A stretch of 64,000 bases of DNA from Polyangiales bacterium (GCA_044229975.1 JBGARZ010000017.1:64001-128000), one strand, 5' to 3'; shown: positions 6,809 through 53,919, counted from the first letter of the stretch. Translations and numbers: made by a program. The notes: generated by a model from the sequence alone, not told the origin.

Positions 6809-7483
6809 TCAGGCGTCCGCGAAGCGGGGCCGGAGCACGTGGTTCTCCAGGTGGACGTGCGTGAAGACGTCGCGCTCGACCTGTGCGAGCTCGGAGAGGA
6901 GCGTGCGGTAGCTGTTGCACGCCCAGGCGGGCGGCGCGAACCCGTCGGCCGCGGCGTGAACCCTCTCCAGCAGCCCCGCCACCGCCAGGTGCTCGCCCTG
7001 CATCGCGGCGAGCCCCTCGGCCACCTCCGCCCGGTCGGTCCGCCTCGCGGTGAGCGCGGGGAAGAGGGTAGCCTCCTCGTCGTCGAGGTGAACCAGCAGC
7101 GCGGCGGAGAGCGCTTCCACCCCGGCCTTCAGTTCGCGGAGCTTCGGGTTGCGGTCGCCGTGGACTCGGCTCACCTTGGCAGCGAGGGCGCTGGCGAAGG
7201 GCAGCGCCCGGCGGAGGTACTCATGGTGCTTCGCGACGATGTGCGCGACGAGCCGCGGGGTGGAGAGCGTGCGCGGGTCGACCTGCGAGTCGCCGCGGCG
7301 CTCCGCGATGGCCGCGGACAGCTCCGCGACGAGGGCGTCGACGGCGAGGCCCCTCCCCTCCGCCGCTGCCTCGACGCTGATGTCACCGCGGCAGCAGAAG
7401 TCGATGCGGTTGCGCTGGAAGACCTCGGCGCACTCCGAGTGGTCGAGGACGAGGGAGGCGACGGTCTGTTGGCGATCGAGCAT
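6809..7483 (-). CDS. ric: Iron-sulfur cluster repair di-iron protein (Ric/YtfE/ScdA)
   Basis: IDFCCRG, HHEYLR, HLDDEE, ACNSYR, HVHLENHVL. Confidence 0.92.
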   Translation of the reverse strand: MLDRQQTVASLVLDHSECAEVFQRNRIDFCCRGDISVEAAAEGRGLAVDALVAELSAAIAERRGDSQVDPRTLSTPRLVAHIVAKHHEYLRRALPFASALAAKVSRVHGDRNPKLRELKAGVEALSAALLVHLDDEEATLFPALTARRTDRAEVAEGLAAMQGEHLAVAGLLERVHAAADGFAPPAWACNSYRTLLSELAQVERDVFTHVHLENHVLRPRFADA

Positions 7484-7571: not shown

Positions 7572-7607
7572 GCGAAGGTCTTGCGCCGGCCGGCGCAGAC
7601 CCTGCGT
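7572..7607. promoter_or_regulatory. Tandem GCGCA-N5-TGCGC-like sites upstream of ric
   Basis: GCGAAggtctTGCGC (7572) and GCGCAgacccTGCGT (7593), 21 bp apart. Confidence 0.6.
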
Positions 7608-7972
7608 CAGCAGCGGTCGTGGGGGTTGGGGAAGGCGTCGTCGTCGCTCTCGCCGCTGCGGGTCTTCAGGCAGGCGAAGTCCTTCTCGACGAGCACCCGC
7701 AGCGACGCTCCTTCCCCCACCGGCTGCGACCCCTCGATGGCCACACGGTCGGTCTCGCACCACTCCCGCGCGACGACCTCGGGGACGGTGACCACCACGC
7801 GCGCGCCGTCGAGCCGCGCCGACAGCGCGTCACCCAGCTCCAGCGCGTACGACAGCCGGGCGTCCGCGCCGAAGCGCACCGCCTCCTCAACGCGGCCGTC
7901 GCGCCCGAAGGCCTCCACCTCGCTGCGCGTCAGCCGCAGCCGCAACGAGTCTCCGCGCATCCTCAGCTTCAT
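7607..7972 (-). CDS. Conserved hypothetical protein
   Basis: MKLRMRGDSLRLRL...LVEKDFACL...DAFPNP; its ATG overlaps the mobA stop. Confidence 0.75.
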   Translation of the reverse strand: MKLRMRGDSLRLRLTRSEVEAFGRDGRVEEAVRFGADARLSYALELGDALSARLDGARVVVTVPEVVAREWCETDRVAIEGSQPVGEGASLRVLVEKDFACLKTRSGESDDDAFPNPHDRC

Positions 7973-8535
7973 CGTCGCTCCATGTCCTCGGGCGTGTCCC
8001 AGTCGTCGAGCAGCCGCTGCTCGCCCAGCGAGAGCGGCAGCTCCGCGGCGCCGAGCGCGTCGAGCAGCCCTTGTGTCGAGCGCGCCCCGGCCTCCAGACG
8101 GCTCAGCGCCGTGGGGAGCGCGCGCGGGGCGTCATAGCGGGCGAACATCGGCTCCCAACGCCCGCCGCGCCGGGCGGCCACGGCGGGGCCCGGGGCGTCG
8201 GCCGCGAGGAGGGCGCCGAGCAGCGCGCGCGTGACGAAGGGCATGTCGCAGCCGAGGGCGACGCACCGGCCCCCACCGGCCCGGCGGAGCAGCGCCACGA
8301 GCCCTCCCAGCGGGCCGACGCCGGCGGGTTCGTCGTCGAGGGTCTCCACGCCGAGGTGCGCGTACTCGGGACGCCGGCCGACCAGCACGCAGGGGACCGA
8401 GAGCGCCACGCAGTGCCCCCGCAGCCCCTCGACCAGCGCCGCCCCGGTGGGCCCCGGAAGGAGCCCCTTCGGGCGGCCGCCGAAGCGGACAGAGGCGCCG
8501 CCGACGAAGATCCCTGCGACGACCGCGTGCGTCAT
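7969..8535 (-). CDS. mobA: Molybdenum cofactor guanylyltransferase
   Basis: GGASVRFGGRPKGLL, GPLGGL, GCDMPF, EPMFARY, DTPED; ATG 8535 overlaps the upstream stop. Confidence 0.82.
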   Translation of the reverse strand: MTHAVVAGIFVGGASVRFGGRPKGLLPGPTGAALVEGLRGHCVALSVPCVLVGRRPEYAHLGVETLDDEPAGVGPLGGLVALLRRAGGGRCVALGCDMPFVTRALLGALLAADAPGPAVAARRGGRWEPMFARYDAPRALPTALSRLEAGARSTQGLLDALGAAELPLSLGEQRLLDDWDTPEDMERR

Positions 8536-9572
8536 CGCTCGCGCCACGCCTTCGGGAGGTTCGTCGCCATGCCCGCGAAGGCGAGGGCCCAGGCCGCCAG
8601 GGCGACGAACACGAAGGCCCTGGGGATGGCGAAGAGGAAGGGCGCGTCCACGGCGCGGGAGAGCCGGGCCGTCGCCGCGGTGTACATCCCGAGCGGGAAG
8701 ACTGCGCCCCAATAGAGCGCGTCGTAACGCAGCGGGAAGCGCTTGTAGACGTGCCGCCACGCGCCCAGCACGAGCAGCATCGGGATCCACCAGGTGGCCG
8801 TCGACCACCACAGGAGCGTGAAGCCGCGCACGAAGGGAAGCACCTGCGTGAGCACGGGCGAGTGCGCCGCCGCCGCGACCAGCGACGCGCCTGCGAGGGT
8901 GGTGATGGCCGCGGCGCCCATGTTGACCCAGTAGGGCGGCGCGAGGTCGGAGGGCGCGAGGGTAAAGAAGGTGTAGCGGTAGAAGATGAGCGCGATGATC
9001 CAGAGGTAGAGCATCGCGCCGCCGAGCCACATCGCGAGGCAGAAGAAGAGCGCCTCGGCCCGGTGCGACGCGAAGCCTGGCGCGAGCTGCGCGCCGAGGG
9101 CGGCCACCGACTGCGCCGCGACGACGGAGACGAGCCAGCCACCGTTGATGCCCTCGGCGAGCGAGGGCTTCTCGGGCTTCACCGTGAGGAGCGCGAACAC
9201 CCCGTAGGTGAGCGCCGCCCAGAGCGCGATGCCAAACCCCCAGAGGGCCGCCGCGGCGCGCGGGGCGTCGCCCACCAGGAGGCACTGCGAGCCCAGCACG
9301 GAGGTGGCCGCGACGGCGGTGAAGAAGCCCACCGAGCGGCCGTGGTGCAGCAGGTCGGCGACCACGCGGTCGCGGTGGAGGGCCACGCGCGCCAGGGTGA
9401 GCGCCCACACCGCGGGGTAGAGGGCGAGGTTGAGCGCGAAGAGGGCGGCGGCGAGGGTGCGGTAGCCGACGAGGTGCGACGCGACGGAGACGATGCCCGT
9501 GGCCATCACGAGCGCGAACTGCGCCGGGTGCATGGTCGCGAGGGACCCGGAGGGTGCGTCGCGGGCCGTCAT
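8532..9572 (-). CDS. TDT/SLAC1-family anion channel (tellurite resistance/C4-dicarboxylate type)
   Basis: FALVMATGIVS, PPYWVNMGAAAITTLAG, YWGAVFPLGMY; about 10 hydrophobic segments. Confidence 0.88.
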   Translation of the reverse strand: MTARDAPSGSLATMHPAQFALVMATGIVSVASHLVGYRTLAAALFALNLALYPAVWALTLARVALHRDRVVADLLHHGRSVGFFTAVAATSVLGSQCLLVGDAPRAAAALWGFGIALWAALTYGVFALLTVKPEKPSLAEGINGGWLVSVVAAQSVAALGAQLAPGFASHRAEALFFCLAMWLGGAMLYLWIIALIFYRYTFFTLAPSDLAPPYWVNMGAAAITTLAGASLVAAAAHSPVLTQVLPFVRGFTLLWWSTATWWIPMLLVLGAWRHVYKRFPLRYDALYWGAVFPLGMYTAATARLSRAVDAPFLFAIPRAFVFVALAAWALAFAGMATNLPKAWRER

Positions 9573-9793
9573 CCCAGCGAGTCGAGGTGGCGGAGCAGGC
9601 CGAGGTTGAGCAGCAGGCACGCGAGGCTCGCGGCCAGCGCCGGCCACACGACCGCGGCGTCGCCGCCGAGCCAGGCGTTCATCGTGGCGGTGAGCAGCCA
9701 GAGCTGCAGCACCACGAGCGTCAGCACGAAGCAGAGCACCCCGTAAACGACGGTGGTGCGCTGGGCCCGGGTGAGGTGCCGCTTCAGCCCCAA
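9569..9793 (-). CDS. Small two-TM membrane protein (DUF6755-like)
   Basis: LQLWLLTATMNAWLGG motif; tightly coupled between the Rieske and TDT genes. Confidence 0.7.
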   Translation of the reverse strand: MGLKRHLTRAQRTTVVYGVLCFVLTLVVLQLWLLTATMNAWLGGDAAVVWPALAASLACLLLNLGLLRHLDSLG

Positions 9794-9794
9794 G

Positions 9795-10448
9795 TCACAC
9801 CGTCCTCGCGGTGACGCCCACGGCGTACACGTCGTCGCCCACGACCTCGAGCTCGACCTTCGGCAGCGGGCGCGGGGGCGGCCCGGCGACGTTGCGCCCC
9901 GTGCGCAGGTCGAAGTATCCGTGGTGGCAGGGGCAGACCAGCGTCCCCCCGGCGAAGTCGGGCACCACCGCGCAGGACAGGTGTGTGCACGCCTGGCTGA
10001 AGGCCACCACCGTCTCAGCGTCCGGGCGCAGCAGCAGGCACGCGTCGTGGTCGCCCGGGTAGTGGAACATCTTCGCGGTCCCCACGGGCACCTCGCCCAG
10101 CGACGCGACCTTCACCCGCGGCGGCGCGCGGCGGGCGCGCACGAGGTGCTGCCCGGCGATCCACGCCTGCCCAACCACGAAGGCCCCGCTGGTGAGCACC
10201 AGGAACTTCGCGAGGTCGCGCCGCGCCACGTACTGGTCCTGCGGCCAGTCGATGGGGAAGTCCTGGCGCCACCGGGGCTGCTCGCCCATCGGGCGCCCGT
10301 CGGGGGCGACCGTAACGTCGTCGGGGTCGCGCGTGGGGGCGTACACGTCCGAGCGCGCGGTGCCCGTGAGCCCCTCGCGGCCGGGCGAGTCGACGCGGGG
10401 GTCGAGCGCCCGGTCCTGCTCGAAGCGGCGCTGCGGGTCGTCAGGCAC
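9795..10448 (-). CDS. Membrane-anchored Rieske [2Fe-2S] protein
   Basis: CTHLSC and CPCHHG boxes, GPPPRPL; ARRDLAKFL twin-Arg-like motif before a hydrophobic helix. Confidence 0.9.
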   Translation of the reverse strand: MPDDPQRRFEQDRALDPRVDSPGREGLTGTARSDVYAPTRDPDDVTVAPDGRPMGEQPRWRQDFPIDWPQDQYVARRDLAKFLVLTSGAFVVGQAWIAGQHLVRARRAPPRVKVASLGEVPVGTAKMFHYPGDHDACLLLRPDAETVVAFSQACTHLSCAVVPDFAGGTLVCPCHHGYFDLRTGRNVAGPPPRPLPKVELEVVGDDVYAVGVTARTV

Positions 10449-10451
10449 GGC

Positions 10452-11111
10452 TCACACCTCCACGTCGGCGAAGGGGTCGGCGCTGTCGGCGCCCAGCACC
10501 GGGAGGCGCACCGTCCGCGGGCGGGCGTGCTCGTCCATGGCGGCGACCACGTCCACGATCACGTCGCGCGCGGCGCCCTTCGGGGCCATCACGTTCACCC
10601 GGGTGGTGATGGTCTGGTCGCCGAAGCGGAAGCGGTTGACCGGCGTGGACTGCGGGCGCAGCGCCAGCACCTGCTCGCGCGTCCCGAAGAAGAGCGCCTG
10701 GCTCGGGCAGACCGTCGCGCACATGGGCCGCTTGCCCGCCGAGGAGCGGTCGTAGCACATGTCGCACTTCATCATGATCTGCCGGTCGAGGTAGAGCTCG
10801 GGCACCCCGAAGGGGCACGCCACCACGCAGTTGCCGCACGCGATGCACCGCGGCTTGCGGGCGCTCTGCACCACCCCGTCGGCGGTGCGCTTGATGGCGT
10901 CGGCGGGGCAAACCTCCGCGCAGGTCGGCTGCTCGCAGTGCATGCAGACCACGGGCACCGTCTGCACGGAGCTCGCGCGATCGACGTACTCCAGGTGGAT
11001 CATCGATTCGCCGCGGTGGGTGTCGCACTCGCTGCACGCCTGCACGCAGGCCTGGCATCCGATGCAGCGGCTCGGGTCGATGAAGAACTCCAGGTGGGCG
11101 GGCACGGGCAT
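10452..11111 (-). CDS. Four-cluster [4Fe-4S] electron transfer subunit (DmsB/NrfC-like)
   Basis: CIGCQAC..C, CMHC....C...CP, CIACGNC...CP, CDMC...C...CP. Confidence 0.92.
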
Positions 11112-11124
11112 GGGGCGTCTCCGG

Positions 11125-13392
11125 TCACTGCTGGGATTCGTGGGTGGCGGCGTAGGCGGGCGGCCCGGCGGCCTTGCGCACGCGGCAGCCGCAGACCTTG
11201 TACTGGGGGATCTTGCTGATCGGGTCCTGGGCGGCGACGGTGAGCCGGTTGGCGCTCTTCTCGCCGGGCCAGTGGTAGGGGACGAACACCGTGTCGGGGC
11301 GGATGGTGGTGACCACCATCGCGCGGAGGGTGACCTCGCCGCGGCGGGTCTCGCAGGTGGTCCAGTCGCCGTCGGCGATGCCGAGCTTGTCGGCGAGGCG
11401 CGGGTGCAGCTCGATGCAGGGCTCGGGGTACTGCTTCACCAGCGGGCCAATGCGCCGCGTCTGCGTGCCCGACAGGAACTGGCTCACCACCCGGCCCGTC
11501 GTGAGGAACAGCGGGTACTCCTCGGAGGCGTCGTCGACCGGGGCGCGGTAGTCGGCCACGTTGAAGCGCGCGCGCCCGTCGGGGAAGTAGAAGGGCCCCG
11601 TGCCCTTGGCGACGGGGTTGTAGCTCCCGGGCTCAAAGAGCCTCGGGGTGCCCGGGTGCTCGGGCGTCGGCGCGCCGGTCTGCGGGTCGTGGCTGTAGCA
11701 GGGCCAGAACACGCCCATCTGTCGCTCGATCTTCTCGTAGGTGATGCCCGAGTAGTCGGCGACGCCGCCCTTGCTGGCCACCCGCAGCTCCTCAAAGATC
11801 TCCCCCGCGCTCGCGAAGGTGAACCCGTGCGGGCGCTCGAGGGCGCGGGCGAGATCCTGGATGATCTCCCAGTCGCGCTTCGCCTCGCCTGGGCACTCGA
11901 CGGCCCGGTTGATCTTGATGACCCGCCCCTCGACCTGGGTGACCGTGCCCTCGTCCTCCTCCTGGAGGCTCCCCGGCAGGACGAGGTTGGCGTGGCGGGC
12001 CGAGTCGTTGAGGAAGAAGTCGATCGCCACGTAGAACTCGAGCTTCTCCAGCGCGCGCGCGATGAACCCGTTGTCGGGCAGCGAGATCTTGGGGTTGAAG
12101 CAGATCGATATCAGCCCCTTGATCTCCCCCGCGTCGATCTTCCGGAACATCTCGTAGGCGTCGACGCCGGGCCCCGGGATGGACGCCTCCTCGACGCCCC
12201 ACACCGACGCGACGTACTTGCGGTGCTCGGGGTTGGAGATGTCGCGCCAGCCCGGGAGCTGGTCGCACTTCTGCCCGTGCTCGCGCCCCCCCTGCCCGTT
12301 GGCCTGGCCGACGATGGTGCCGTAGCCGCACTTGGGCTTGCCGATGCGCCCAGAGGCCAGCACGAGGTTGATGCTCCCGAGGGAGTTCTGCACCCCGTTG
12401 GAGTGGTGCTCGATGCCGCGCGCGTGGAAGAGGAAGCTCGACTTCGCCGTCCCCCACAGCTCCGCCGCGGCGCGGAGCGAGCGCTCGGGAACGCCCGTCA
12501 CCTCCGCGGTGCGCGCGGGCGTCCACTGCGCGCAGTACTCCTCCACCTTGTCGAAGCCGACGGTGTGGGCGTCGATGAAGTCCCGGTCGATCCACCCCCT
12601 CTCGATCATCAGGTGGAGCACGCCCGCGAAGAGCGCGGCGTCGCGCCCGGGGCGCACTGGGAGGTAGAGGTCGCAGGTGCGCGCGACGGGGGTGATGCGC
12701 GGGTCCTGCACAATGACCTTCGCGCCCATCTCGCGGGCCTGCCAGATGTAGTTGGTGGTGATGGGCGAACACTCGGCGACGTTCGACCCGGCGACCCAGA
12801 TCACCTCCGTGCCGACCATGTCCGACCAGGGGTTGGTGGTGCGGTCGACGCCGAAGGCCTTCTTGTTGGCGGCCCCCGCGCTCACCATGCAGAGCCGCCC
12901 ATTGTAGTCGATGAAGGGGGTCTTCAAGCACACGCGCGCGAACTTGCCGAGGAGGTAGGTCTTCTCGGTGGTGAGGCTCGCCCCCCCGAGTACGCCCACG
13001 GCGCCCGGGCCGTGCTCCTTCTGGAGCCGCCCGATCTCGCGCGCGGCGAGCGCGATGGCCTCGGCATACGGCATCGGGCGAAACCCGCCGGACGCCGAGG
13101 GGTCGCGCCGCACGGCAGTGAGCAGCCGGTCGGGGTGCGAGCCCTGGAGGTAGCGCTTGACCCCTTTGGGGCAGAGCATCCCGCGGTTGAAGGGGAACTC
13201 CTCCCAGGGCTCGAAGCCGACGACCTCGTTGCCGCGCACCTTCAACTGGATGCCGCACTGCTGCCCGCAGAAGCAGCAGTGGGTCTTCACCAGCTTGTCG
13301 GGCTCGCCGCTCTCGGGTCCGCGGACGGACGCCGACAGGTGCGGCCCGAAGGCGCGGGTGATCTCGAGGTCGTCGACGGGGAGGGTGGCCAT
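11125..13392 (-). CDS. Mo-bis-PGD oxidoreductase catalytic subunit, Nas/Nap nitrate-reductase-like
   Basis: [13 protein letters not shown] [4Fe-4S] motif; NGRLCMVS (Cys ligand followed by Met); [25 protein letters not shown]. No signal peptide. Confidence 0.88.
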
Positions 13393-13396
13393 GCGG

Positions 13397-14464
13397 CTAA
13401 GGGCTCACTTTCGGTGTGGACCAGAGGGCGCCCTGTGCGAGCCCGAAGAGGGCGCGTCGGCACTTGGGGCAGACCTGCTGGTAGTGCTTCCCCTCGCCGC
13501 GGGCCGTGAGCTCGTAGCGGAACCCGAGCTCGCGCTCGACGGTGACGAGGTCGCGCACCATCGCGGCCGATGCGTACGGGGCGTCGCAGCGCGCGCAGCG
13601 GGCCTGCTCGCTCCGGTTGCCGGCGTCCTTGTAGAAGCTGACCCCCAGCTGCGCGGGGCGCTGGAAGACGTGGAAGAGCTTGCCGAAGGGCAGCCAGAGC
13701 AACGTGAGGATCACTACCGCGGCGTGCAGGATGGCGAGGAAGGGGTACGCGTAGCCGCGCATCCACGTGTAGCTCACGGTGAGCATCAGCCCCGTGACGC
13801 TGACGGCGAGGAGCAGCACCAGAGGGAGGATATCCTCGCCGAACTGCTGCACCGCCGCGGCGCCGTGGTCGATCATGCGCCGGCGGAACGCGAGCATCAC
13901 CCCGACGATGACGAGAAGCGACGACCAGACGAGCCCGTGGAAGAGCACGAACCCGACGAGCGAGCGCACCGGGAACTCCCCCGCGGCGACGCCGAAGACG
14001 AAGGCGCGGTAGGTATCGAGCTGCCCCGGGACGGTCTCGAAATGGATCCAGCCCCAGACGAGCGGGAAGGTGATCGCGGCGGCCAGGAGGCAGCCCCACA
14101 TGATGGCCCAGTGGGCCAGGCCCCGGAGGGATCCGCGCCGGAAGATGAAGCGGTTGGCGGCGAACTCCAGCAGGGCGCGCCGCCCGAGCTCGGCGAGGTT
14201 GGTGCCGAGGAAGCGCGGCGTGAAGAAGACCTGCCACCCGCGGCGCCAGTACATCCGCGTCGGCGGCCGCTGGAGCCACATGGTGTAGCGCCAGGTAATG
14301 CCGAAGGTCGCGAACAGCGTCGCGAAGGTGTAGCCCACCAGCGCGGCGTCGAAGTGCGCGAGGTTGCGCGAACCGAGCACGATAAACGCAGCGAGCGTTG
14401 TGGTGAAGGTCGTCGCCCACGTGAAGGCCTTGAGTCGAGGCTTGTCTCGCGCCACGTCAGCCAC
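13397..14464 (-). CDS. Polytopic membrane protein, NarI/cytochrome b-like, with C-terminal Cys4 motif
   Basis: Several TM helices carrying His ([17 protein letters not shown]), WLPFGKLFH motif, and CARC...CPKC. Confidence 0.7.
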
Positions 14465-14735
14465 CGTGGGTGGTTCTTACAGCCCCTGCCGCCGGGGCGG
14501 AAGCCTCCGCATCGTCGATCCTCGCGGGGTCGCCCGGCGGTCTGCACAGCACCGCGCCCCGCCGCCCGCCGGACGGCAACAGGAATCCCACGCACCCCGG
14601 GCAGACCGCGCAGACCGCGACGAACGTCGTGCCGACGTAGCGATCGCAGTCCACCGTCAGTCGGCGCACCACGGTCCCTTCCACGGTGACCATCTCCTGC
14701 ACCCCGATGTCACGCTCGACGAGGTCCGCCATCAT
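14457..14735 (-). CDS. Small five-cysteine protein, first gene of the Mo-enzyme operon
   Basis: GGAG 8 nt upstream and a sigma54 box; stop overlaps the next GTG; gapless similarity to the N-terminal domain of 34027-34677. Confidence 0.75.
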
Positions 14736-14786
14736 GTTCTTTGCTCCAGCGCGGACCCTGATTGTGGTGCCGCCGAGCAGCCACAG

Positions 14787-14802
14787 AGCAGTCCACGTGC
14801 CA
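14787..14802 (-). promoter_or_regulatory. sigma54 promoter of the Mo-enzyme operon
   Basis: Minus strand TGGCACGTGGACTGCT; 15/16 identical to the box at 16158. Confidence 0.75.
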
Positions 14803-15719: not shown

Positions 15720-16130
15720 TCAGCGCGCCTCGGCCTGGATCTCGGTGAGCTCCTCAGCCGCGACGCCGCGCCACCGGTAGAGCGTCTCCTCCTCGTGGCG
15801 TCCGTGCGCTCGCAGGTGAGAGAGAAGGCGGTTCATCGCGTCTTCGCGCACGGTGTGCAGCTCGATGGCAATGCCGACGTCGGAGAGGGCGTCCCGAATC
15901 TGCGCGTGCTCGGCCTGGATCCGGCGCGCCGCGTCCGGGGCGATCAGCTCGAAGCGCGGCAGGAGCTGGAGCTCCTCGAAGTCCATGTGCGCGCGGAGCC
16001 TCGTCTCCAGCGGGCCCCAGGCCTCGTCGATAGCGGCCGTGTCGCCGCAATGGACGCGGTTGGCGAGGTCTTCGTAGAGCGCGTCGAGGTCCTTGTGTTC
16101 GTGAGTGAGGCGTTCTCCCAGCGTCGTCAT
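15720..16130 (-). CDS. Hemerythrin (HHE) domain protein
   Basis: EH, HMDFEE, EH, HGRHEE ligand pattern; ATG 16130 with GGAG upstream. Confidence 0.82.
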   Translation of the reverse strand: MTTLGERLTHEHKDLDALYEDLANRVHCGDTAAIDEAWGPLETRLRAHMDFEELQLLPRFELIAPDAARRIQAEHAQIRDALSDVGIAIELHTVREDAMNRLLSHLRAHGRHEEETLYRWRGVAAEELTEIQAEAR

Positions 16131-16157: not shown

Positions 16158-16173
16158 AGCAGTCGACGTGCCA
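16158..16173 (-). promoter_or_regulatory. sigma54 promoter of hemerythrin-USP
   Basis: Minus strand TGGCACGTCGACTGCT. Confidence 0.75.
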
Positions 16174-18588: not shown

Positions 18589-19326
18589 TCAGTGGCAGTG
18601 GCAGTGGGCGGGCGACATCGCGGGGACGGTCGGTTGCAGGAAGACGGCGGTCTGCTGGCAGACGGCGACCAGGCTCAGCACCCCCATCACGCCGAGCGCG
18701 AAGCCGATGGCGCGCCGCACTGGCGCCCGGCGCACCAGGGACGAAAGCACCCCGGCGGCGACGGACATGGCGAGCAGCATCGGCAGCGTCCCGAGCCCGA
18801 ACGCCATCATCGCGAGCGCGCCCGTGGTGGCCGACCCGGCGCTCAGCGCCAGCGCGAGCGCGGTGTACACGAGGCCACAGGGCAGCCACCCCCACAAGAC
18901 ACCTAGCGCTATCGCCTGGCGCGGCGAGCGCACCGGCAGCAGCGCCTGCGCGGCCGGTCGGAGGCGCTCCCAGAGCGGCGCGCCGAGCGCTTCGAGCCGG
19001 GCGAAGAGCGGCCACACGCCCGCGAGGTAGAGGCCCGCGCCCAGCATCAGCGCGCCTGCCACGGCCTTGAGTGCGAGCTGGGCTCCCGCGACGGGCCAGA
19101 GACCCTGGGCGACGGCGCCGAGCCCGCCCGCGAGGAGCCCGGCGAACGTGTACGACCCGATGCGGCCGAGGTTATAGGCCAGCAGGTAGGGGAGCGGCCG
19201 CGAGCGCGCCTCGGCCGGCAGGCCCGCGCAGAGGACGCCCACGACGCCGCCGCACATCAGCACGCAGTGGGTGCTGCCCGCGAGCCCGAGCGCGAAGGCA
19301 GCGACGATCGTCGCGTCGACCGTCAC
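18589..19326 (-). CDS. cbb3-associated DsbD_2/sulfite-exporter-like membrane protein
   Basis: HCVLMCGG, YNLGRIGSY, GWLPCGLVY, FGLGTLP. Confidence 0.85.
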   Translation of the reverse strand: MTVDATIVAAFALGLAGSTHCVLMCGGVVGVLCAGLPAEARSRPLPYLLAYNLGRIGSYTFAGLLAGGLGAVAQGLWPVAGAQLALKAVAGALMLGAGLYLAGVWPLFARLEALGAPLWERLRPAAQALLPVRSPRQAIALGVLWGWLPCGLVYTALALALSAGSATTGALAMMAFGLGTLPMLLAMSVAAGVLSSLVRRAPVRRAIGFALGVMGVLSLVAVCQQTAVFLQPTVPAMSPAHCHCH

Positions 19327-20705
19327 AGCACCACCCCCGGCCCGAGGCAGGGCGCTGTGAGCACGCGGGACGAACCGCCGCTCGCGCGCACCGTGATGGG
19401 CACGCCGAAGTCGCCCCGCCTCGACGCGCGCGGGACGCTCACGAACACCGGCACCGTGACCCCCTCCAACGGTCCGAGCACGACCTCGCGCAGCGGCGCG
19501 ACCACCTCCACGCCCGCGACGTTCGACGGCTCGATGCGCAGCGTGGCGCGCTCGCTGCGCTTGTTTACGAGGTGGATCTGGAAGGCGTTGCGGACGCGCC
19601 CCTCGACCAGCTCGTAGGGTGCGCCCGGCAGGCGCATGAGGTTGGCCTCAAAGTCCGCCCGCTCGCGCAGCGTGAGGCCCGCGACCAGGGCGCCGATCGC
19701 TCCGAGCGCGAGGTAGGCCGCGAGCCGGGGACGCCAGAGGCGACGGGTCTCGCCGTCGAGGCCGCGCACCGAGTCGTAGCGGATGAGCCCGCGCGGTCGG
19801 TGGAGCTTGTCCATGATCTCGTCGCACGCGTCGATGCAGGCCGTACAGCCGATACAATCGAGCTGTGTGCCGTGGCGGATGTCGATGCCCGTCGGGCACA
19901 CTACCACGCAGCGGTGGCAGTCGACGCAGTCGCCGTGGTTGGGTTCGGTGGCCTTGCCGCGGGGTTCGCCGCGGCGCGCGTCGTAGCCGACGGTGAGCGA
20001 GTCGGCGTCGGTGAGCGCGCCCTGGAGCCGGCCGTAGGGGCACACCCCCAGGCAGAGCTGCTCGCGGAAGTGCGCGAAGTTGGCGTAGAGCAGGGCCGCG
20101 ATGACGAAGGTCCAGGCGAAGGCTTCGGGGTGCGCGGCGGGCGCGGCGCGCACCATCGCGTAGAGGCGCGGCAGCGAGACGAAGTAGCTGATGAAGACGT
20201 GCGCGAGCAGCAGCGACACCACCGCGAAGAGCGCGTGCTTGGTCACCTTGCGGGCGAGCTTGCCCGCGTCCCAGGGCCCCTTGTCGCGGCGCACGCGGGC
20301 CTCGCGCGGACCCTCGATCGCCCGCTCGATGCGGCGGTAGACCCCTTCGAGGAACACCGTCTGCGGGCACGCCCAGCCGCACCACACCCGTCCCGCCACG
20401 GCGGTGAGCAGCAGCAGCGCGAAGCCCACGCCCGTGACGAGGAAGAATACCAGCGGCAGGTCTTGCGCGTTGAAGGCGGCGCCGAAGAGGAAGAAGCGCC
20501 GCGCCTCGATGTCGAGAAACACCGCCGGGTTTCCGCCTACCGACACCCACGGCAGCGCGGCGTACACCGCGATGAGCACGGCGAACACCACCCGGCGCGC
20601 GGTGGTGAAGCGCCCGTGGGTGTCCGCGGGGTAGACCCGCGCGTGCGAGCCATCGGCGCGCAGCGAACTCGGGGCGAGCACCGGGAGGTGGTGGCGGGCG
20701 GTCAT
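19323..20705 (-). CDS. ccoG: Cytochrome c oxidase accessory protein CcoG
   Basis: GRVWCGWACPQT, CPYGRLQ, CVDC..C..VCPTGIDIR, CIGC..CIDAC. Confidence 0.95.
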   Translation of the reverse strand: MTARHHLPVLAPSSLRADGSHARVYPADTHGRFTTARRVVFAVLIAVYAALPWVSVGGNPAVFLDIEARRFFLFGAAFNAQDLPLVFFLVTGVGFALLLLTAVAGRVWCGWACPQTVFLEGVYRRIERAIEGPREARVRRDKGPWDAGKLARKVTKHALFAVVSLLLAHVFISYFVSLPRLYAMVRAAPAAHPEAFAWTFVIAALLYANFAHFREQLCLGVCPYGRLQGALTDADSLTVGYDARRGEPRGKATEPNHGDCVDCHRCVVVCPTGIDIRHGTQLDCIGCTACIDACDEIMDKLHRPRGLIRYDSVRGLDGETRRLWRPRLAAYLALGAIGALVAGLTLRERADFEANLMRLPGAPYELVEGRVRNAFQIHLVNKRSERATLRIEPSNVAGVEVVAPLREVVLGPLEGVTVPVFVSVPRASRRGDFGVPITVRASGGSSRVLTAPCLGPGVVL

Positions 20706-20720
20706 CGGTCTGGGTCTCCT

Positions 20721-21302
20721 TCAGGGCTCGGCGGTGCCCTGCGGTGCCTTGCCGCTGGGCACGTTGCGGTTGCGGATGGTGACCAGGTACGCGGTCACGG
20801 CGAGCACGCGGTCGGCCCCGAGCTGCGGCCCCCAGGCGGGCATGCCGCGCGCGGTGACCCCTTCGGTGACCGTGCGGTACACCCGGTCGGGCGCCGCGCC
20901 GTGCAGCCACGCCGCGTCGGTGAGGTTGGGCCCGATGCCGCCGCCACCGGTCGCGCCGTGGCAGGCCGCGCAGGTGCTCGCAAACACCCCGGCGCCCTGG
21001 CGCACCGTGGCGTCGTCGCGGGACATCGCCAGCAGCATCGCGGGGGTGATGGTCCCGCGGGCGCGCATCCGAGCGGCCTCGGCGGCGTACACGGCCTGCA
21101 TCTCGCGGTGGAGTGTCTGCCGCGGCGTCTCGGCGACGGCGAAGACCTCGACCCAGTACCAGTACCCGAAGGCGAAGACGATCGTGGCGAAGAGTGCCGT
21201 GAGCCACCAGGTGGGCAGGTCGTTGTCGTACTCCTCGATGCCGTCGTACTCGTGCAGCACGCGGTCGACGTTGGCGTCGGGCGTCACGGCGCGGTCAGTC
21301 AT
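20721..21302 (-). CDS. ccoP: cbb3 oxidase subunit III (monoheme)
   Basis: HEYDGIEEYDNDLPTWW, a single CAACH, GPNLTD, GMPAW. Confidence 0.92.
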   Translation of the reverse strand: MTDRAVTPDANVDRVLHEYDGIEEYDNDLPTWWLTALFATIVFAFGYWYWVEVFAVAETPRQTLHREMQAVYAAEAARMRARGTITPAMLLAMSRDDATVRQGAGVFASTCAACHGATGGGGIGPNLTDAAWLHGAAPDRVYRTVTEGVTARGMPAWGPQLGADRVLAVTAYLVTIRNRNVPSGKAPQGTAEP

Positions 21303-21468
21303 CGGCGTCCTCCCGGGCGGCGAGCGGCACGGCGGCGGCGCCGTCGAAGTGGGCCGCGCGGCGCAGCACCACCGAGAGCAGCACGGCGGTGAACGCGACG
21401 AGGAAGATCACCAGCGCCGCGAGCGGCAGGGCCAGCAGGGGGCTGTGAGCGAAGAACTCCCGGTACAT
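21295..21468 (-). CDS. ccoQ: CcoQ-like small membrane subunit
   Basis: 57 aa, one TM helix, ..VPL..ED tail, located between ccoNO and ccoP. Confidence 0.65.
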   Translation of the reverse strand: MYREFFAHSPLLALPLAALVIFLVAFTAVLLSVVLRRAAHFDGAAAVPLAAREDADD

Positions 21469-21470
21469 GG

Positions 21471-23825
21471 TCAGTGCGCTCCTTGCGCAGGGGTGGTCGC
21501 GGCGGGGGCCGCGGCGGTCGCGGCGTCGGGCGCGTGGCCCAGTCGCTGGAGATAGGCGATGAGGGCGAGCACCTCGCGGTCGGGCGCGACGCGGGCGCCG
21601 TTGTCGGCGAGGTCGCGGGCGATCTCGGCGGCCTGCGCGCGGGCGTCGGTCACCGCGTTGGCGATGTCGCGGTCGGTGTACGGCACGCCCAGCGTGCGCA
21701 TCGCGGTGAGCTTGTCGGCGGTACGCGAGAGGTCGAGCGGCGCCCGCGCCATGAACGCGTACGGCGGCATGTTGGACCCCGGCGAAGTGGCCCGCGGGTC
21801 GAGCAGGTGGCGGTAGTGCCAGAGGTTGGGGTAGCGGCCGCCCTCGCGCGCGAGGTCGGGCCCGGTGCGCTTGGAGCCCCACTGGAAGGGGTGGTCGAAG
21901 CGCGACTCCTCCGCCGTCGAGGCCTCGCCGTAGCGCAGCGTCTCGAAGCGCAGCGGCCGGATCATCTGCGAGTGGCAGTTGTAGCAACCCTCGCGCAGGT
22001 AGAGGTCGCGCCCCTCCAGCTCCAGCGGGCGGTACGGATGCGCGTGCGTGCCGGCCTCGCTTGCGGGCCGGAGCACGATGGTGGGGATGATCTCCGCGAC
22101 GCCACCGATGAGCACGGCGATCACCGTGAAGACAGTGAAGATGAGCGCGCGTCCTTCCAGGAGACGGTGCCAGGTGGGGCGGCCGTCTTCGCGGGTGAGC
22201 TGGATGCCGAGGGTTCCGCCGAAGGCGACGCAGACGCCCAGCAGCGCCACCGCGAGGCTCGCCACCTGGCTGGTGACGGCCATCGCGCCGAAGAGCACGG
22301 CGCTCAGCGTGACGATGACCACTGGGGCGCTGAAGACCATCGCCGTCCAGCGCACTTCGGGCTCCTCCTTGGGCTCCTCGAAGACCGTCATGGTGCCGTC
22401 GACGGCGTGGCCGCGGCGGGCGGTGGCGACGAGGTTCCAGGCCATGAGGCCCATGCCCGCGAGGTAGAGCGAGCCGCCCGCGAGGCGCATCCAGTACATC
22501 GGCCGCAGCGCGAGCACCGTCTCGATGAAGTTCGGATAGACGAGCGCGCCGGTCGGAGTGAGCGCGCGCCACATGAGGCCCTGGGTGACTCCAGAGACCC
22601 ACATCGAGACGACGTAGAGCAGGATGCCCACCGTCCCGACGTAGAAGTGCAGCTCCGCGGCGGCCTTGGAGTGGAGCTTCGTGCCGTAGAGGCGCGGCAC
22701 CATCCAGTAGAACATCCCGGCGGCCATCAGGCCGTTCCAGCCGAGGGCGCCGGCGTGCACGTGGCCGACGATCCAGTCGGTGTAGTGGGCGAGGCTCGAC
22801 ACGCTACGGATGGAGAGCAGTGGCCCCTCGAAGGTGGCCATCCCGTAGAAGGTGATGCCCGCCGCGAAGAACTTGAGCACCGGCTCTTCGCGCACCTTGG
22901 CCCAGGCGCCGCGCAGCGTGAGCAGGCCGTTGAGCATGCCGCCCCAGCTCGGCGCCCAGAGCATCACGCTGAAGATCATCCCCAGCGTCTGCGCCCACTC
23001 GGGCAGCGCGGTGAACAGCAGGTGGTGCGGCCCCGCCCAGATGTACATGAACACCAGGGCCCAGAAGTGGATGATCGAGAGCCGGTACGAGTAGACCGGG
23101 CGCTCGGCCGCCTTCGGCACGAAGTAGTACATGATCCCGAGCACCGGGGTGGTCAGGAAGAAGGCGACGGCGTTGTGGCCGTACCACCACTGCACCAGTG
23201 CGTCCTGCACGCCGCCGAAGATCGAGTAGCTCTTGAAGGGCGAGACCGGCAGCGCGAGCGCGTTGACGACGTGCAGCACCGTCACGGTGACGATGGTCGC
23301 GATGTAGAACCACACCGCGACGTACAGGTGCTTCTCGCGGCGGCGCGCGAGGGTCCAGAAGAAGTTGATGGCGAAGACGACCCACACCGCGGCGATGGCG
23401 AGGTCGATGGGCCACTCCAGCTCCGCGTACTCCTTGCCCTGCGTGATGCCGAGCGGGAGCGTGACGGCGGCCGCGACGATGATGGCCTGCCAGCCCCAGA
23501 AGTGGATCTTGGCGAGGAGGTCGGACGGCAGCCGCGCCTTCACGAGGCGCTGGGTGGAGTAGTAGATCCCGCTGAAGATCATGTTGCCCACGAACGCGAA
23601 GATCACGGCGTTGGTGTGCAGCGGGCGCAGGCGACCGAAGGAGAGGTGCGGGTCGACGTTGGCCCGCCACCACGCCATCTGAAGGGCGATGAGCGCGCCC
23701 ACGGACATGCCGATGAGCCCCCAGAAGACGGAGGCCCAGAGGAACTTTCGCGCGACGTCGTCGTTGTAGACGATGCGGGTGCCGACGAGGCTCGGCCGGG
23801 GCGGTTCGAGGTCGGATGTGCTCAC
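21471..23825 (-). CDS. ccoN: Fused cbb3 oxidase subunits I and II (CcoNO)
   Basis: RLRPLHTN, QWWYGHN, WAGPHH, GHVH; C-terminal EGCYNCHSQMIRP and WGSKRTGPDLAR. Confidence 0.96.
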   Translation of the reverse strand: MSTSDLEPPRPSLVGTRIVYNDDVARKFLWASVFWGLIGMSVGALIALQMAWWRANVDPHLSFGRLRPLHTNAVIFAFVGNMIFSGIYYSTQRLVKARLPSDLLAKIHFWGWQAIIVAAAVTLPLGITQGKEYAELEWPIDLAIAAVWVVFAINFFWTLARRREKHLYVAVWFYIATIVTVTVLHVVNALALPVSPFKSYSIFGGVQDALVQWWYGHNAVAFFLTTPVLGIMYYFVPKAAERPVYSYRLSIIHFWALVFMYIWAGPHHLLFTALPEWAQTLGMIFSVMLWAPSWGGMLNGLLTLRGAWAKVREEPVLKFFAAGITFYGMATFEGPLLSIRSVSSLAHYTDWIVGHVHAGALGWNGLMAAGMFYWMVPRLYGTKLHSKAAAELHFYVGTVGILLYVVSMWVSGVTQGLMWRALTPTGALVYPNFIETVLALRPMYWMRLAGGSLYLAGMGLMAWNLVATARRGHAVDGTMTVFEEPKEEPEVRWTAMVFSAPVVIVTLSAVLFGAMAVTSQVASLAVALLGVCVAFGGTLGIQLTREDGRPTWHRLLEGRALIFTVFTVIAVLIGGVAEIIPTIVLRPASEAGTHAHPYRPLELEGRDLYLREGCYNCHSQMIRPLRFETLRYGEASTAEESRFDHPFQWGSKRTGPDLAREGGRYPNLWHYRHLLDPRATSPGSNMPPYAFMARAPLDLSRTADKLTAMRTLGVPYTDRDIANAVTDARAQAAEIARDLADNGARVAPDREVLALIAYLQRLGHAPDAATAAAPAATTPAQGAH

Positions 23826-24004
23826 GGGATATCGGCTCCTGAGGGTGTGCGGGGAGAGGGTTGAGCGTCGTCGTCGCCGAGGGGCGCGAGGGCGAGGCGG
23901 TCGGCGTGGTCGAGGTCGCGCTGGCGCGCCGAGTACGCGAAGAGGAGCAGCGCACCGGCCACCAGCGCGAGGCTCACGAAGACCTGGAGGACGAGGACTT
24001 CCAA
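23822..24004 (-). CDS. ccoS: cbb3 assembly protein CcoS
   Basis: Short single-TM protein with D.DH.DRLAL.PL.DD, located between ccoI and ccoN. Confidence 0.8.
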   Translation of the reverse strand: MEVLVLQVFVSLALVAGALLLFAYSARQRDLDHADRLALAPLGDDDAQPSPRTPSGADIP

Positions 24005-26412
24005 AGGGGGCTCCGGGAGGAGAGCGAGGCGACGGTGGCCAGCAGGATGCTGAGCGAGCTCGCGGGCATCACCACCGCGCAGAGCAGCGGCGACATGCGG
24101 CCCGCGAGCGCGAGTCCGACCGTGACGGCGTTGTATGCGAGCGCGATGCCGAGGTTGCGGCGGTGGATGCGGGCGAGGGCGTGCGCCGCGCGCAACGCGA
24201 GCCCGACGGGGCGCAGGCCCGCCGTGACGACGTAGAAGTCCGTGCGCGCGGGCATGAACGGCCGGTCGATGGCGGGCGTGCCGGAGCAGAACGCGCGCTC
24301 GACGGCGAGGGCGTCGTTGATGCCGTCGCCGACCATGAGCGTGTCGTGCAGATCGTGCGCCTCCAGCCAGCGGGCCTTGTCGTCCGGCGAGAGTCCCCCG
24401 ATGGCGCGCTCCGCGGGGACGCCCAACGCGACGGCCATGGACGACACCCGTCCGGGCGCGTCGCCGCTCAGGATCCAGACCTCGTATCCCTCGGCGGTGA
24501 GCTGCGCGAGCTCGGCCCGGGCGCCCGGGCGGAGCACCTCCTCGGTGCGCATGCGAGCGAGCGCGACCCGGTCGACAGAGAAGACGAGATCACCGTCGGT
24601 CGCGGCCGCCGCGGCGGCCCACGCGGGCTCGCCGAGGCGGTACACGTGGTCGCGCGTGCTGAGCTCGACGCCGCGCCCGGCGAGCTCGCGCACGTCGAGC
24701 GAGTCGTCGAAGCGGAGGCCGTTGTCCGGCAGCGCCGTGCGCACCGCGAGGCTCTTCGGGTGGGTGCTGCGGACGGCGAGGTTGTAGAGGGCGGCGCGGT
24801 CGTCGGGCGCGAGCGCGTCGAGCGCCGCGGGGTCGGCGAGGCGGAGGGCGCCGGTGGTGAGCGTCCCGGTCTTGTCGAAGACGACGCGCCGCACGGCCGT
24901 GGCGCGGTCGAGGAAGCTCGGCGAGCGCACGAAGAGGCCCGCGCGCCGCAGGCCCGCCTGCGCGAGCTCGTAGGCCATCGGGGTCGCGATGCCGAAGGCG
25001 CACGGGCAGGTGACGATGAGGACGGCCGTCGCGACTTCCATCGCGCGTTGCGGGTCATTCGTCACGACGGTCCAGCCGATGAATCCCAGCGCGGCGAGGG
25101 AGAGCACGCCGACGACCCATGCGGCGGCGAGGCGACGCCACCACGGGGTCGCGCGTGCGGCGTCGGCTCGGGGGACGGGGTTGCGTAGCAGGCCCACGAG
25201 CGGCGAGCCCGCGAAGTCGGTCGACGCGCCCACCCGCACCGCTCGTTGGCCCAGGTTGAAGGCGCCCGCGGGGACGGCCTCGCCGCGGACGAAGGCGCGC
25301 GGGGCGCTCTCGCCCGAGATCCAGTCGAGGGAGCAGCTCGCCTCGTCATCGAGGAGCGCGCCGTCGACCGGGACGACGTCACCCGGCGCGATGAGCATCA
25401 TGTCGCCCGCCGCGACCTCGCGGCACGGGACGAGCGACACCGCGCCGTCGCGCACCCGGCGGGTGAGCAGGCCGTCGATGCCGTCGGAGGCGAGGAGGTA
25501 GTGGCGGTTGCGCTCCAGCACCCGCTCCTGGAGCCAGCGGCCCGCGAGCATGAGGGTGATGAAGGTCGAGAGCGTGTCGAAGTAGGCGCCGCGCCCGTCG
25601 CGCCCGGCGGCGAAGGCCCAGGTCGACCCGGCGAAGGTGAGCACGATCCCGAGCGCGATGGGCAGGTCGAGGTGCACGACCCGGCGCCGCACGGCCTGCC
25701 ACGCCGAACGCAGAAACACCGACCCGCCGACCGAGACGCTCGCCAGGGCCAGGAGGAAGGAGAGCCACGCGAAGAGCGAGTGCACGGGTCCGGTGCGCAG
25801 CCCAAGGTAGAGCGGGAGCGAGAAGATCATCCCGTTGACGGTGAGGGCCGCGCACACGCCGAGGCGCGTGAGCAGCGTGCGCGAGGGCTGCGTCTCGGCT
25901 TTGAGCGGCGGTCCCAGCGCGTAGCCGAAGGACTCGACGTCGCGCACGTAGGCGCGCAATCGGAAGGTGCGGGTGACGGTGAGCGAGACGCGCCCGACGC
26001 CCGGGTTGACGACGTCGCGGAGCGCGCCGGGCTGGCGGCGGAAGAGCTCGCCCAGCAGCCACACGCAGGCCGCGCAGTGGAGGCCCTGCACGTCGAGCTC
26101 GACGCGGCACACGCCCTCGGCGGCGGCCACCCGAGCCTCGATCGACTCCAACCATTTCAGGTCGTGCGCCGAAGACCCCGTCGCAGCGACCGGCGCGCCC
26201 GAGGTGCCCTGGAGGTCGTAGTAGCGGGTGAGCCCCTGGGCCTGGAGCAGATGGTGAACCGCCTCGCAGCCCGTGCAGCAGTAGGGTCCCTCATCGCCCG
26301 CGAGGGCTGTCCCGCAGTGGAGGCAGAGGGTCTCGTCGATGCCCGCGCCCGAGGCGCGCCGCGAGGCAGCGTCGTCAGCGGGGGCGGACGACGTGACAGG
26401 CTCGGTCTGCAT
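23974..26412 (-). CDS. ccoI: CcoI/FixI heavy-metal P1B-type ATPase
   Basis: CLHC..CC.GC, CAAC, SGES, CPC, DKTGTLT, GDGIND. Confidence 0.92.
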   Translation of the reverse strand: MQTEPVTSSAPADDAASRRASGAGIDETLCLHCGTALAGDEGPYCCTGCEAVHHLLQAQGLTRYYDLQGTSGAPVAATGSSAHDLKWLESIEARVAAAEGVCRVELDVQGLHCAACVWLLGELFRRQPGALRDVVNPGVGRVSLTVTRTFRLRAYVRDVESFGYALGPPLKAETQPSRTLLTRLGVCAALTVNGMIFSLPLYLGLRTGPVHSLFAWLSFLLALASVSVGGSVFLRSAWQAVRRRVVHLDLPIALGIVLTFAGSTWAFAAGRDGRGAYFDTLSTFITLMLAGRWLQERVLERNRHYLLASDGIDGLLTRRVRDGAVSLVPCREVAAGDMMLIAPGDVVPVDGALLDDEASCSLDWISGESAPRAFVRGEAVPAGAFNLGQRAVRVGASTDFAGSPLVGLLRNPVPRADAARATPWWRRLAAAWVVGVLSLAALGFIGWTVVTNDPQRAMEVATAVLIVTCPCAFGIATPMAYELAQAGLRRAGLFVRSPSFLDRATAVRRVVFDKTGTLTTGALRLADPAALDALAPDDRAALYNLAVRSTHPKSLAVRTALPDNGLRFDDSLDVRELAGRGVELSTRDHVYRLGEPAWAAAAAATDGDLVFSVDRVALARMRTEEVLRPGARAELAQLTAEGYEVWILSGDAPGRVSSMAVALGVPAERAIGGLSPDDKARWLEAHDLHDTLMVGDGINDALAVERAFCSGTPAIDRPFMPARTDFYVVTAGLRPVGLALRAAHALARIHRRNLGIALAYNAVTVGLALAGRMSPLLCAVVMPASSLSILLATVASLSSRSPLWKSSSSRSS

Positions 26413-33628: not shown

Positions 33629-34030
33629 ATGTCACCCACGCTCGCTCCGACCCGACGAGTCCTGCTCATGGAGGACGACGCCTCCGCGGGGGGCAGGCTC
33701 GCGCAGATGCTGCGCGAGGACGGCTACGAGGTGGAGTTCGTGCCCGACGGGGAGACGGCGATCTCGCGGCTCCGACGCTCCCCGCCCCCGGACGTGCTGG
33801 TGGCCGACTACCGGCTCCCGGGGATCGATGGGCTCGGCGTCGCGGCCTTCGTGCGGGATCGATGGCCGGGCATGCCGGTGATCATGGTCACCAGCTACCC
33901 CGAGGTGATCGAGCGCGTCACCCGTCGCGACGGCACGCCGATGGTCATCCTCGGCAAGCCCCTCACGTATGCGGACCTCGTCCGCGAGCTGGAGCGGGGA
34001 CGCCGCGTCGACCCGACCCCGGGGTCGTGA
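33629..34030 (+). CDS. Single-domain response regulator
   Basis: VLLMEDD, DVLVADYRLPGIDG, IMVTS, KP. Confidence 0.88.
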   Translation: MSPTLAPTRRVLLMEDDASAGGRLAQMLREDGYEVEFVPDGETAISRLRRSPPPDVLVADYRLPGIDGLGVAAFVRDRWPGMPVIMVTSYPEVIERVTRRDGTPMVILGKPLTYADLVRELERGRRVDPTPGS

Positions 34031-53545: not shown

Positions 53546-53561
53546 GAAGTCCTCGCTCGGG

Positions 53562-53876: not shown

Positions 53877-53919
53877 CGATTGTTCTCCTTCACTCGTGCG
53901 GCACGCGTCGCGCGCCGGG

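Follow-up and report, generated by a model that had tools for sequence, protein, structure and literature searches.

A widespread operon combining a NasC-type molybdoenzyme, a NarI-like membrane protein and a low-potential Rieske protein: a predicted quinol-fed respiratory nitrate reductase

What does a molybdoenzyme operon encode when its gene set is that of neither Nap, classical Nas nor Nar nitrate reductases? The question is raised by a 64,000-nucleotide stretch from a Polyangiales bacterium (GCA_044229975.1, JBGARZ010000017.1:64001-128000; hereafter the window, with positions counted from its first letter), in which nine open reading frames (ORFs) occupy positions 7607 to 14735 of the minus strand, separated by intergenic gaps of -8 to +13 bases and followed after 123 bases by ric. 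All nine lie where the original prediction, made from the sequence of the window, had placed them as an operon for a non-canonical membrane-bound nitrate-reductase-like complex. We found that the operon is real and widespread and that it encodes a variant form of complex iron-sulfur molybdoenzyme; its predicted proteins point to what we consider its probable function, namely a quinol-fed, cytoplasm-facing respiratory nitrate reductase for breathing nitrate at low oxygen.

With the membrane protein as bait, 451 pattern-matched stretches were retrieved from GTDB, a relative was encoded in 302 of them and 80 loci were kept; a second, independent set of 80 metagenome loci brought the two sets together to 160. 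The gene order membrane protein, molybdenum (Mo) subunit, iron-sulfur (FeS) protein, Rieske protein and DUF6755 was conserved in 57/57 genome loci with at least 7 kb downstream, and the five-gene core was whole in all 26 metagenome loci with at least 4 kb downstream. DUF6755, present in every one of these, is a core subunit, and no paper mentioning the family was found in a literature search whose coverage lacked most subscription journals. Among the same 57 loci, the TDT gene was found in 23, ric in ten, and the MobA and DUF7009 genes in one each. The core order is also annotated on a Deinococcus plasmid and can be read in Brevibacillus, though without a detected DUF6755; in this Brevibacillus locus (L087, 5277-8722) genes for a haem-synthase-like radical SAM protein (TIGR04053), NarK and a Crp/Fnr regulator precede the operon.

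The supposition that similar clusters exist in other phyla was borne out. The membrane subunit alone, whose scored candidates fall into more than 6,400 clusters at 90% identity, is present in Myxococcota (which include the nearest named relatives, at 88-95% identity, making a myxobacterial host likely), Acidobacteriota, Planctomycetota, Bacillota, Deinococcota, Actinomycetota, Chloroflexota and others, with named homologues also in Paenibacillus, Bacillus, Streptomyces, Chloroflexia, Elusimicrobia, Holophagaceae, Limnochordia and further groups. Only five of 41 genomes around the host, the host counted, carry the system, and its distribution is therefore patchy. Genes of low-oxygen and nitrosative-stress physiology, i.e. 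ric/hemerythrin, Crp/Fnr, NnrS, NirK-like, protoglobin kinase and cbb3 oxidase genes, are found as neighbours of the operon.

The catalytic subunit had been read as a nitrate reductase rather than a formate dehydrogenase, and both its motifs and its phylogeny agree. Its best NCBIfam model is NasC (NF047855; 761 bits against a cut-off of 1100, which several nirB-linked NasC copies also fail to reach), followed by Fdh-alpha (522 bits, cut-off 666) and NapA (243 bits, cut-off 904), while the narG model matched with 54 bits over 82 residues and the protein is not a large, Asp-liganded NarG. It contains the FS0 cysteines 39/42/46/74, Lys76, the sequence R-L-C168-M, in which the Mo ligand Cys168 is followed by Met, and a GQxN...RE motif. 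As had been claimed, it has no signal peptide: sequence and hydropathy reveal neither a hydrophobic segment, nor a twin Arg, nor any other export signal at the N-terminus. In a quick IQ-TREE phylogeny of 30 proteins (three long NasA references being cut to their catalytic part; the long branches of NapA, haloarchaeal NasA and D. grandis are unsure), 14 operon copies formed their own subclade (support 91) within a NasC clade (support 100) that includes the nirB-linked copies of Paenibacillus, Ca. Mycobacterium methanotrophicum, Skermanella and Deinococcus grandis, with FdhF-type enzymes, NapA and other NasA falling outside. All members of the NasC clade, operon copies included, share DYNGRxCM and a second active-site motif, whereas the formate dehydrogenases in the alignment have Cys/Sec-His and RGQNNVQG (RGHNNVQG in one); identity to nirB-linked NasC is 40-47%. 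Because these motifs are shared and the N-terminus is neither hydrophobic nor twin-arginine, the active site is predicted to belong to a cytoplasmic nitrate reductase, and nitrate is the likely substrate since the motifs and the clade are those of nirB-linked NasC. Grouping with an assimilatory enzyme partnered by nirBD had been named as a refutation of the original prediction; the clade is indeed shared with nirB-linked NasC, but the operon partners differ and neither nirB nor nirA is linked.

The membrane subunit was expected to resemble NarI, and it does have a NarI-type five-helix fold and conserved candidate haem-ligand histidines. A family scan returned weak matches to NarI (E 0.0034), TcuB and QmoC, and a sequence search of the membrane-protein alignment against the PDB gave nothing significant. 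Its AF2 model (pLDDT 91) was closest to EtfD (Z 11.3, rmsd 4.8, 238 residues aligned) and NarI (Z 10.6, rmsd 4.7, 182 aligned), with all remaining matches at Z 8.0 or below; NarI topped the Foldseek list (E 0.047), and an hhalign profile alignment with NarI (E 4e-5) placed H247 and H265 on its last-helix His pair. H118, T132, H247, H265 and four C-terminal cysteines (C290, C293, C332 and C335) are invariant in 355/355 full-length homologues, five of 360 having been dropped by length, and of 44 more distant full-length representatives, drawn from 150 listed, 43, 44 and 43 retain the three histidines, respectively, while 37 retain T132; a PFGKLFH motif is also present. H118, H247 and H265 are accordingly placed as predicted haem ligands, the Cys4 tail as a predicted cytoplasmic metal site, and H176 (His or Asn) may line the quinone site. 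As universal haem ligands, H37, H141, H176 and H327 were rejected.

The second helix-II His of NarI is absent, with no His ten residues after H118 in any of the 355 and 44 sequences, and the three-His pattern is thus of the EMO/EtfD/HdrE type, with one His at the distal site, and not the four-His pattern of NarI. In EMO, EtfD and HdrE, the available part of the sources describes a bis-His proximal haem and a distal site that is either empty, as in EtfD, or holds a stacked twin haem with one His (bioRxiv 10.64898/2026.08.18.745454; PMC13083937). In the HdrE model of the same sources, Ser occupies the position of SaEMO A101, which follows the first His by 14 residues and is tied to the twin haem; T132 likewise lies 14 residues after H118, an equivalence drawn from spacing alone and not from superposition.

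The FeS protein has 16 cluster cysteines plus one. The Rieske protein has ARRDLAK before a single transmembrane (TM) segment, a CTHLSC...CPCH motif and a conserved cytoplasmic W..DF..DW segment, and its R76, R77, D78, C159, C174, G177 and F179 are invariant in 59 sequences; its nearest structures are the Thermus Rieske protein and AioB. Because the twin-Arg motif (RRD followed by F or L), the one TM segment and a basic patch recur throughout the family, also in Deinococcus and Brevibacillus, the sequences suggest that the Rieske protein is Tat-inserted with its head outside. The twin-Arg anchor and the disulfide Cys pair had both been noticed before, in a protein labelled high-potential, and this label did not survive: the Ser and Tyr that provide hydrogen bonds behind the second (CPCH) box of high-potential Rieske proteins are replaced by the invariant Gly177 and Phe179, and Gly/Phe at these two potential-setting positions predicts a value below +200 mV (Baymann and colleagues, PMC3509893, in the part available). 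The protein is therefore predicted to be of the low-potential type, which would fit a menaquinol-to-nitrate chain.

The gene after the core pointed to the substrate in another way. The TDT protein is a secure family member (PF03595, 165 bits, cut-off 27.9), and its place is taken elsewhere by NarK. Among the 80 genome loci, a NarK-like gene was found in 43, and in 38 a NarK-like MFS domain was in frame with the membrane subunit, a fusion common in Acidobacteriota with the NarK part in front; since such fusions occur in the family, unfused copies also received the label "MFS transporter". The NarK-like transporter has TIGR00886 as its best NCBIfam match, below cut-off, and NarK-family genes adjoin the Deinococcus and Brevibacillus operons. 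Three proteins (P0385, P0399 and P0496), of 820-830 residues with the membrane domain C-terminal, are longer than the usual NarK fusion.

When loci were restricted to those with flanks of 1.5 kb or more upstream and 5.2 kb or more downstream, the transporter slot contained NarK in 35 and TDT in 22 of 57 genome loci, and NarK in eight and TDT in ten of 18 metagenome loci, so that the two were mutually exclusive in 75/75 loci, never both and never neither. At E 1e-25, a NarK-like query had no match anywhere in 20 of 24 TDT-type genomes. On the membrane-protein tree the transporter label is strongly clustered, yet it switches seven times, at least three of the switches being forced by strong branches, and the distribution therefore does not reflect one inherited split. 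Because TDT and NarK exclude each other, the TDT channel likely carries nitrate or nitrite and does NarK's job, an assignment that accords with nitrate conduction by plant SLAC1 and SLAH3 (PMC3509319, in the part available); the predicted tie between channel and substrate thereby gains a basis in genomic substitution. No paper linking a bacterial SLAC1/TehA protein to nitrate and a nitrate reductase was found, most subscription journals lying outside the coverage.

Whether nitrate would be assimilated or respired was addressed through the genomes. Neither nirB nor nirA was found in any of the 160 loci, and the host genome, 93% complete, yielded no nirB, nrfA, nirK above cut-off, nirS, nosZ, narG, napA or narK, in agreement with the earlier remark that the window has no nirBD or narK. 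Besides NuoG, the operon's Mo subunit is the only full Mo-bisPGD enzyme of the host, in which moaA is present. The host's single siroheme enzyme lies amid sulfate-assimilation genes, its flanking genes being what we take from their motifs to be cysC and cysH. Across 51 carrier genomes (the host plus those of 50 of the 80 loci, mostly incomplete metagenome-assembled genomes), nirB was found in 15, nrfA in 12, nirK in ten, narG in three and napA-like genes in four; 24 had none of nirB, nrfA and nirK, 45 lacked both narG and napA, and in seven of 50 a siroheme reductase domain was absent altogether. This gene pattern favours a dissimilatory electron sink. The host also has alternative complex III genes adjoining an aa3-type oxidase (G000:C32:107168-115553) and a Rieske/cytochrome b pair (C38:126278-128567).

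As a quinol-fed respiratory nitrate reductase, the proteins would form one complex. The outer face of the membrane subunit would be the site of quinol oxidation, close to H247 and to the invariant TFPL motif (T132). There the low-potential Rieske head, kept outside by its twin-arginine anchor, would serve as a one-electron partner together with DUF6755, and electrons would traverse the membrane by way of the H118/H265 haem, reaching FS0 and the Mo centre through the four-cluster protein. With protons released outside and consumed inside, each nitrate reduced would move about two charges in a Nar-like redox loop. In the present host, which has no detected nitrite reductase, nitrite would be excreted and the enzyme would act as an electron sink under low oxygen.

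Several points weigh against this interpretation. The enzyme activity is predicted from genes alone, and those characterised enzymes that stand nearest to the Mo subunit in the tree are assimilatory. The 80 + 80 loci are closest relatives, with two phyla dominating; the family searches scored top candidates only, which makes absences soft, and a ferredoxin-type NirA is not separable from sulfite reductase. Z-scores of 10-11 fall within the chance range for helical bundles, and a simple Nar-like loop needs no Rieske protein. Position 128, the equivalent of NarI H66, which we take to be the second helix-II His ligand, is Ala, Ser, Gly or Val in all sequences, which makes the presence of a distal haem uncertain; the same three His occur in EtfD, which binds one haem only (bioRxiv 10.64898/2026.08.18.745454; PMC13083937, in the part available). 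Finally, the same three-subunit layout has been published as an Sb(III) oxidase, NaoABC (PMC11521347, in the part available).

Alternatively, the same enzyme, still reducing nitrate, might draw electrons through the Rieske head from a carrier in the periplasm or from a reduced inorganic compound and pass them inward through the haems, with or without quinol; in a variant of this scheme, quinol oxidation would be bifurcated, one electron passing via the Rieske protein to cytochrome c or a cbb3 oxidase and the other to nitrate. The invariant anchor that puts the Rieske head outside, a predicted potential between menaquinol and nitrate, the likeness to AioB and a cbb3 oxidase cluster 4 kb away are all compatible with such a donor, which could moreover explain why Sb(III) oxidation by NaoABC occurs only with nitrate present (PMC11521347, in the part available); we nevertheless hold it to be rather improbable, as no conserved cytochrome c gene was found among the neighbour clusters of the 80 loci and the cbb3 linkage is local. 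An assimilatory enzyme fed from the membrane instead of by NasB or NirB would suit the NasC clade of the Mo subunit, the nirB found elsewhere in the genomes of the 15 carriers, and the accessible account of Bacillus bataviensis, in which nasC, FeS and Rieske genes were read as an alternative assimilatory system (Heylen and Keltjens, PMC3475470). It appears improbable in view of a host devoid of nirB whose only siroheme enzyme belongs among sulfate-assimilation genes, of carriers with no siroheme reductase domain at all, of 160 loci in which neither nirB nor nirA was found, and of neighbours that are low-oxygen genes.

The system could also be NaoABC in its published sense, an antimonite or other metalloid oxidase passing electrons to quinone. 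The gene order and affinities are the same (Mo subunit nearest NapA, DmsB-like FeS protein, AioB-like Rieske with an N-terminal TM helix), and the two cloned clusters, of 5.5 and 6.7 kb, would match the size of the operon without and with NarK, a comparison of our own (PMC11521347, in the part available). This identity is a likeness by published layout alone, however, the accessible tree legend of that paper naming no Nas group and no purified enzyme being reported there, and the Mo subunit studied here has no export signal, a full nitrate-reductase site and a tie to NarK instead of ars genes: an ArsR-like gene was found in two of 80 loci, and a crude motif scan gave one match, in a gene whose start looks unrelated. 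A metalloid oxidase is in our judgement quite improbable. Least of all do we expect the complex to run in reverse as a cytoplasmic nitrite oxidase or to reduce another oxyanion such as chlorate or selenate. Mo-bisPGD enzymes are often reversible, and TDT proteins pass several anions, but a low-potential Rieske protein suits electron supply to nitrate and not removal from nitrite, the carriers belong to ordinary heterotroph lineages, and the NarK linkage points to nitrate or nitrite.

Around the preferred reading, a respiratory nitrate reductase, we advance a bolder proposal that is possible but doubtful as a whole: that the operon represents a fourth prokaryotic nitrate reductase architecture, in which a NasC subunit is joined to an EMO/HdrE-type twin-haem cytochrome b and an outward low-potential Rieske protein that would split or gather electrons at the outer face, conserving energy or coupling outside donors to cytoplasmic nitrate reduction, served by a fused NarK or a SLAC1-type nitrate/nitrite channel, and that this would be the true identity of NaoABC.

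Features of the operon and its immediate surroundings, in positions of the window
Feature	Position	Strand	Basis
Membrane subunit, 355 aa	13397..14464	-	NarI/EMO-type cytochrome b fold
Mo-bisPGD catalytic subunit, 755 aa, NasC clade	11125..13392	-	NCBIfam, tree, motifs
Four-cluster [4Fe-4S] electron-transfer subunit, DmsB/HybA-like, 219 aa	10452..11111	-	Family scan; 57/57 loci
Rieske [2Fe-2S] protein, 217 aa, one uncleaved TM anchor	9795..10448	-	Motifs, 59-sequence alignment
DUF6755, 74 aa, two TM helices	9569..9793	-	PF20540 E 7e-32
TDT/SLAC1-family anion channel, 346 aa	8532..9572	-	PF03595 E 3e-48
MobA-like molybdenum cofactor guanylyltransferase, local accessory	7969..8535	-	Family scans
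DUF7009 protein, local accessory	7607..7972	-	PF22668
Ric iron-sulfur repair di-iron protein	6809..7483	-	TIGR03652, 199 bits
Weak ORF ("leader"), stand-alone Cys4 domain of local CBS proteins	14457..14735	-	
Sigma54-like box TGGCACGTGGACTGC	14788..14802	-	Pattern match

Four elements that the original prediction had counted in the system proved local: the Cys-rich leader, the sigma54-like box, MobA and DUF7009 recurred in 0/80, 2/74, 1/57 and 1/57 loci, respectively. The leader ORF has a very low coding score (5) and found no match (E 1e-4) in any of 80 related loci. It duplicates, as a stand-alone unit, the Cys4 domain that precedes a CBS protein at 34027, and on these grounds it was rejected as a subunit. 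This domain of about 60 residues (C-x11-CxxCxxC-like, no Pfam match) occurs at 34027-34677 and 14457-14735 of the window, at G000:C17:52427-52642 and at L038:19618-19800, standing before a CBS pair or alone, and may be a metal or redox sensor. The sigma54 box is present as claimed but falls within chance, 15/100 shuffles of the window yielding two such matches and relatives having it upstream in two cases against one in control stretches; it is possibly a local promoter and is not conserved, and an upstream Fnr box, found in 3/74 relatives, is not conserved either. A second, almost identical sigma54-like box lies at 16159-16173, upstream of a hemerythrin gene (15720-16130). A MobA-like gene adjoins the operon also in loci L084 and L085, and in L002 (15972-16949) a hemerythrin-like domain appears fused to MobA right after the TDT gene, followed by DUF7009.

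With its cbb3 oxidase cluster, protoglobin-PAS kinase, sigma54-type activator, and Usp, CBS and hemerythrin genes around the operon, the window forms a low-oxygen island; the cbb3 cluster and the activator were identified by reading translations. Two near-duplicate cbb3 clusters (fused ccoNO, ccoP, ccoG, an ATPase and a DsbD-like gene) are found at 18589-26430 and at G000:C3:4340-12128, each adjoining a protoglobin-PAS kinase, a CBS protein and a sigma54-type activator. Farther away, genes for an SQR-like flavoprotein, a DsrC/TusE-like and a DsrE-like protein stand in a row (53069-55146), a possible sulfur-handling module, and the 150-kb host contig G000:C30 has about 20 radical SAM domains, which suggests a large RiPP-type or duplicated biosynthetic region. 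At most 11% of query words were matched in sequencing runs. Two RNA libraries hold contigs of a relative's operon, one covering 8532-14436, likely through DNA carry-over, because both also contain contigs of 30-35 kb.

The statement that no characterisation was known needs care. Heylen and Keltjens (PMC3475470, in the part available) noted in B. bataviensis a short nasC with FeS and Rieske genes, unlinked to nirBD, whose best match was P. mucilaginosus 3016; because the latter also has the membrane protein, the B. bataviensis set probably belongs to the same system. Wang and colleagues (PMC11521347, in the part available) reported that two clusters of Mo, 4Fe-4S and TM-Rieske genes, once cloned into R. 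palustris, brought about an oxidation of Sb(III) that depended on nitrate. No Symbiobacteriaceae name appeared among the named homologues, the nearest being a Limnochordia protein, and the accessible parts of PMC11388526 and PMC6349771 contain no description of the system. What is new here is the substitution of TDT for NarK, the EMO-type His pattern and the low-potential Rieske protein.

If the enzyme is respiratory, surveys that file its Mo gene as assimilatory nasA or nasC overlook nitrate respiration in common soil and sludge bacteria. The operon also provides a concrete, testable function for a bacterial TDT/SLAC1 channel, in the transport of nitrate or nitrite, and a membrane subunit in which to ask whether the newly described twin-haem site exists beyond EMO and Hdr. 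In gene order it matches NaoABC (PMC11521347), which the available text presents as a three-subunit periplasmic oxidase anchored by its Rieske protein and describes without a cytochrome b, DUF6755 or transporter. If the two are the same system, the nitrate-reductase site, the predicted cytoplasmic location and the NarK tie argue that the periplasmic-oxidase assignment needs re-testing, and the operon offers a direct way to re-examine that claim and the use of naoA as a marker of antimony oxidation.

Compared with known systems, the set departs, as had been predicted, from Nap, classical Nas and Nar. Its catalytic subunit differs from NapA in lacking a Tat signal and in its low NapA score, and from FdhF in having neither Cys/Sec-His nor RGQNNVQG. 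With the NasC-type assimilatory reductase of Bacillota and Actinomycetota it shares clade, motifs and predicted cytoplasmic location, but it forms its own subclade, scores below the NF047855 cut-off and has no linked nitrite reductase, a four-cluster protein, cytochrome b, anchored Rieske and DUF6755 standing in place of NirB/NasB. The low-potential Gly/Phe Rieske beside a nitrate reductase recalls the haloarchaeal Rieske/cytochrome b-Nar clusters (PMC3509893, in the part available), but those combine an outward-facing NarG with a bc-type cytochrome b, whereas here a NasC-type enzyme predicted to be cytoplasmic meets a NarI-type cytochrome b. EMO/EtfD/HdrE (PDB 9OJN, described in part) give the best fold match, with three His, a last-helix spacing of 18 and a hydroxyl residue at +14 (T132) alike, but the membrane subunit has no fused FeS or CCG domains and serves a Mo enzyme. 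The predicted topology is that of E. coli NarGHI with NarK (PDB 1Q16), i.e. a membrane cytochrome b, a four-cluster wire, a cytoplasmic Mo site and an operon-encoded transporter; the fold and last-helix His pair of NarI are kept, with three His instead of four, extra N-terminal helices and a Cys4 tail, while a Cys-liganded subunit of 755 residues replaces the 1,247-residue NarG, NarJ is missing, a Rieske protein and DUF6755 are added, and a TDT channel takes the place of NarK.

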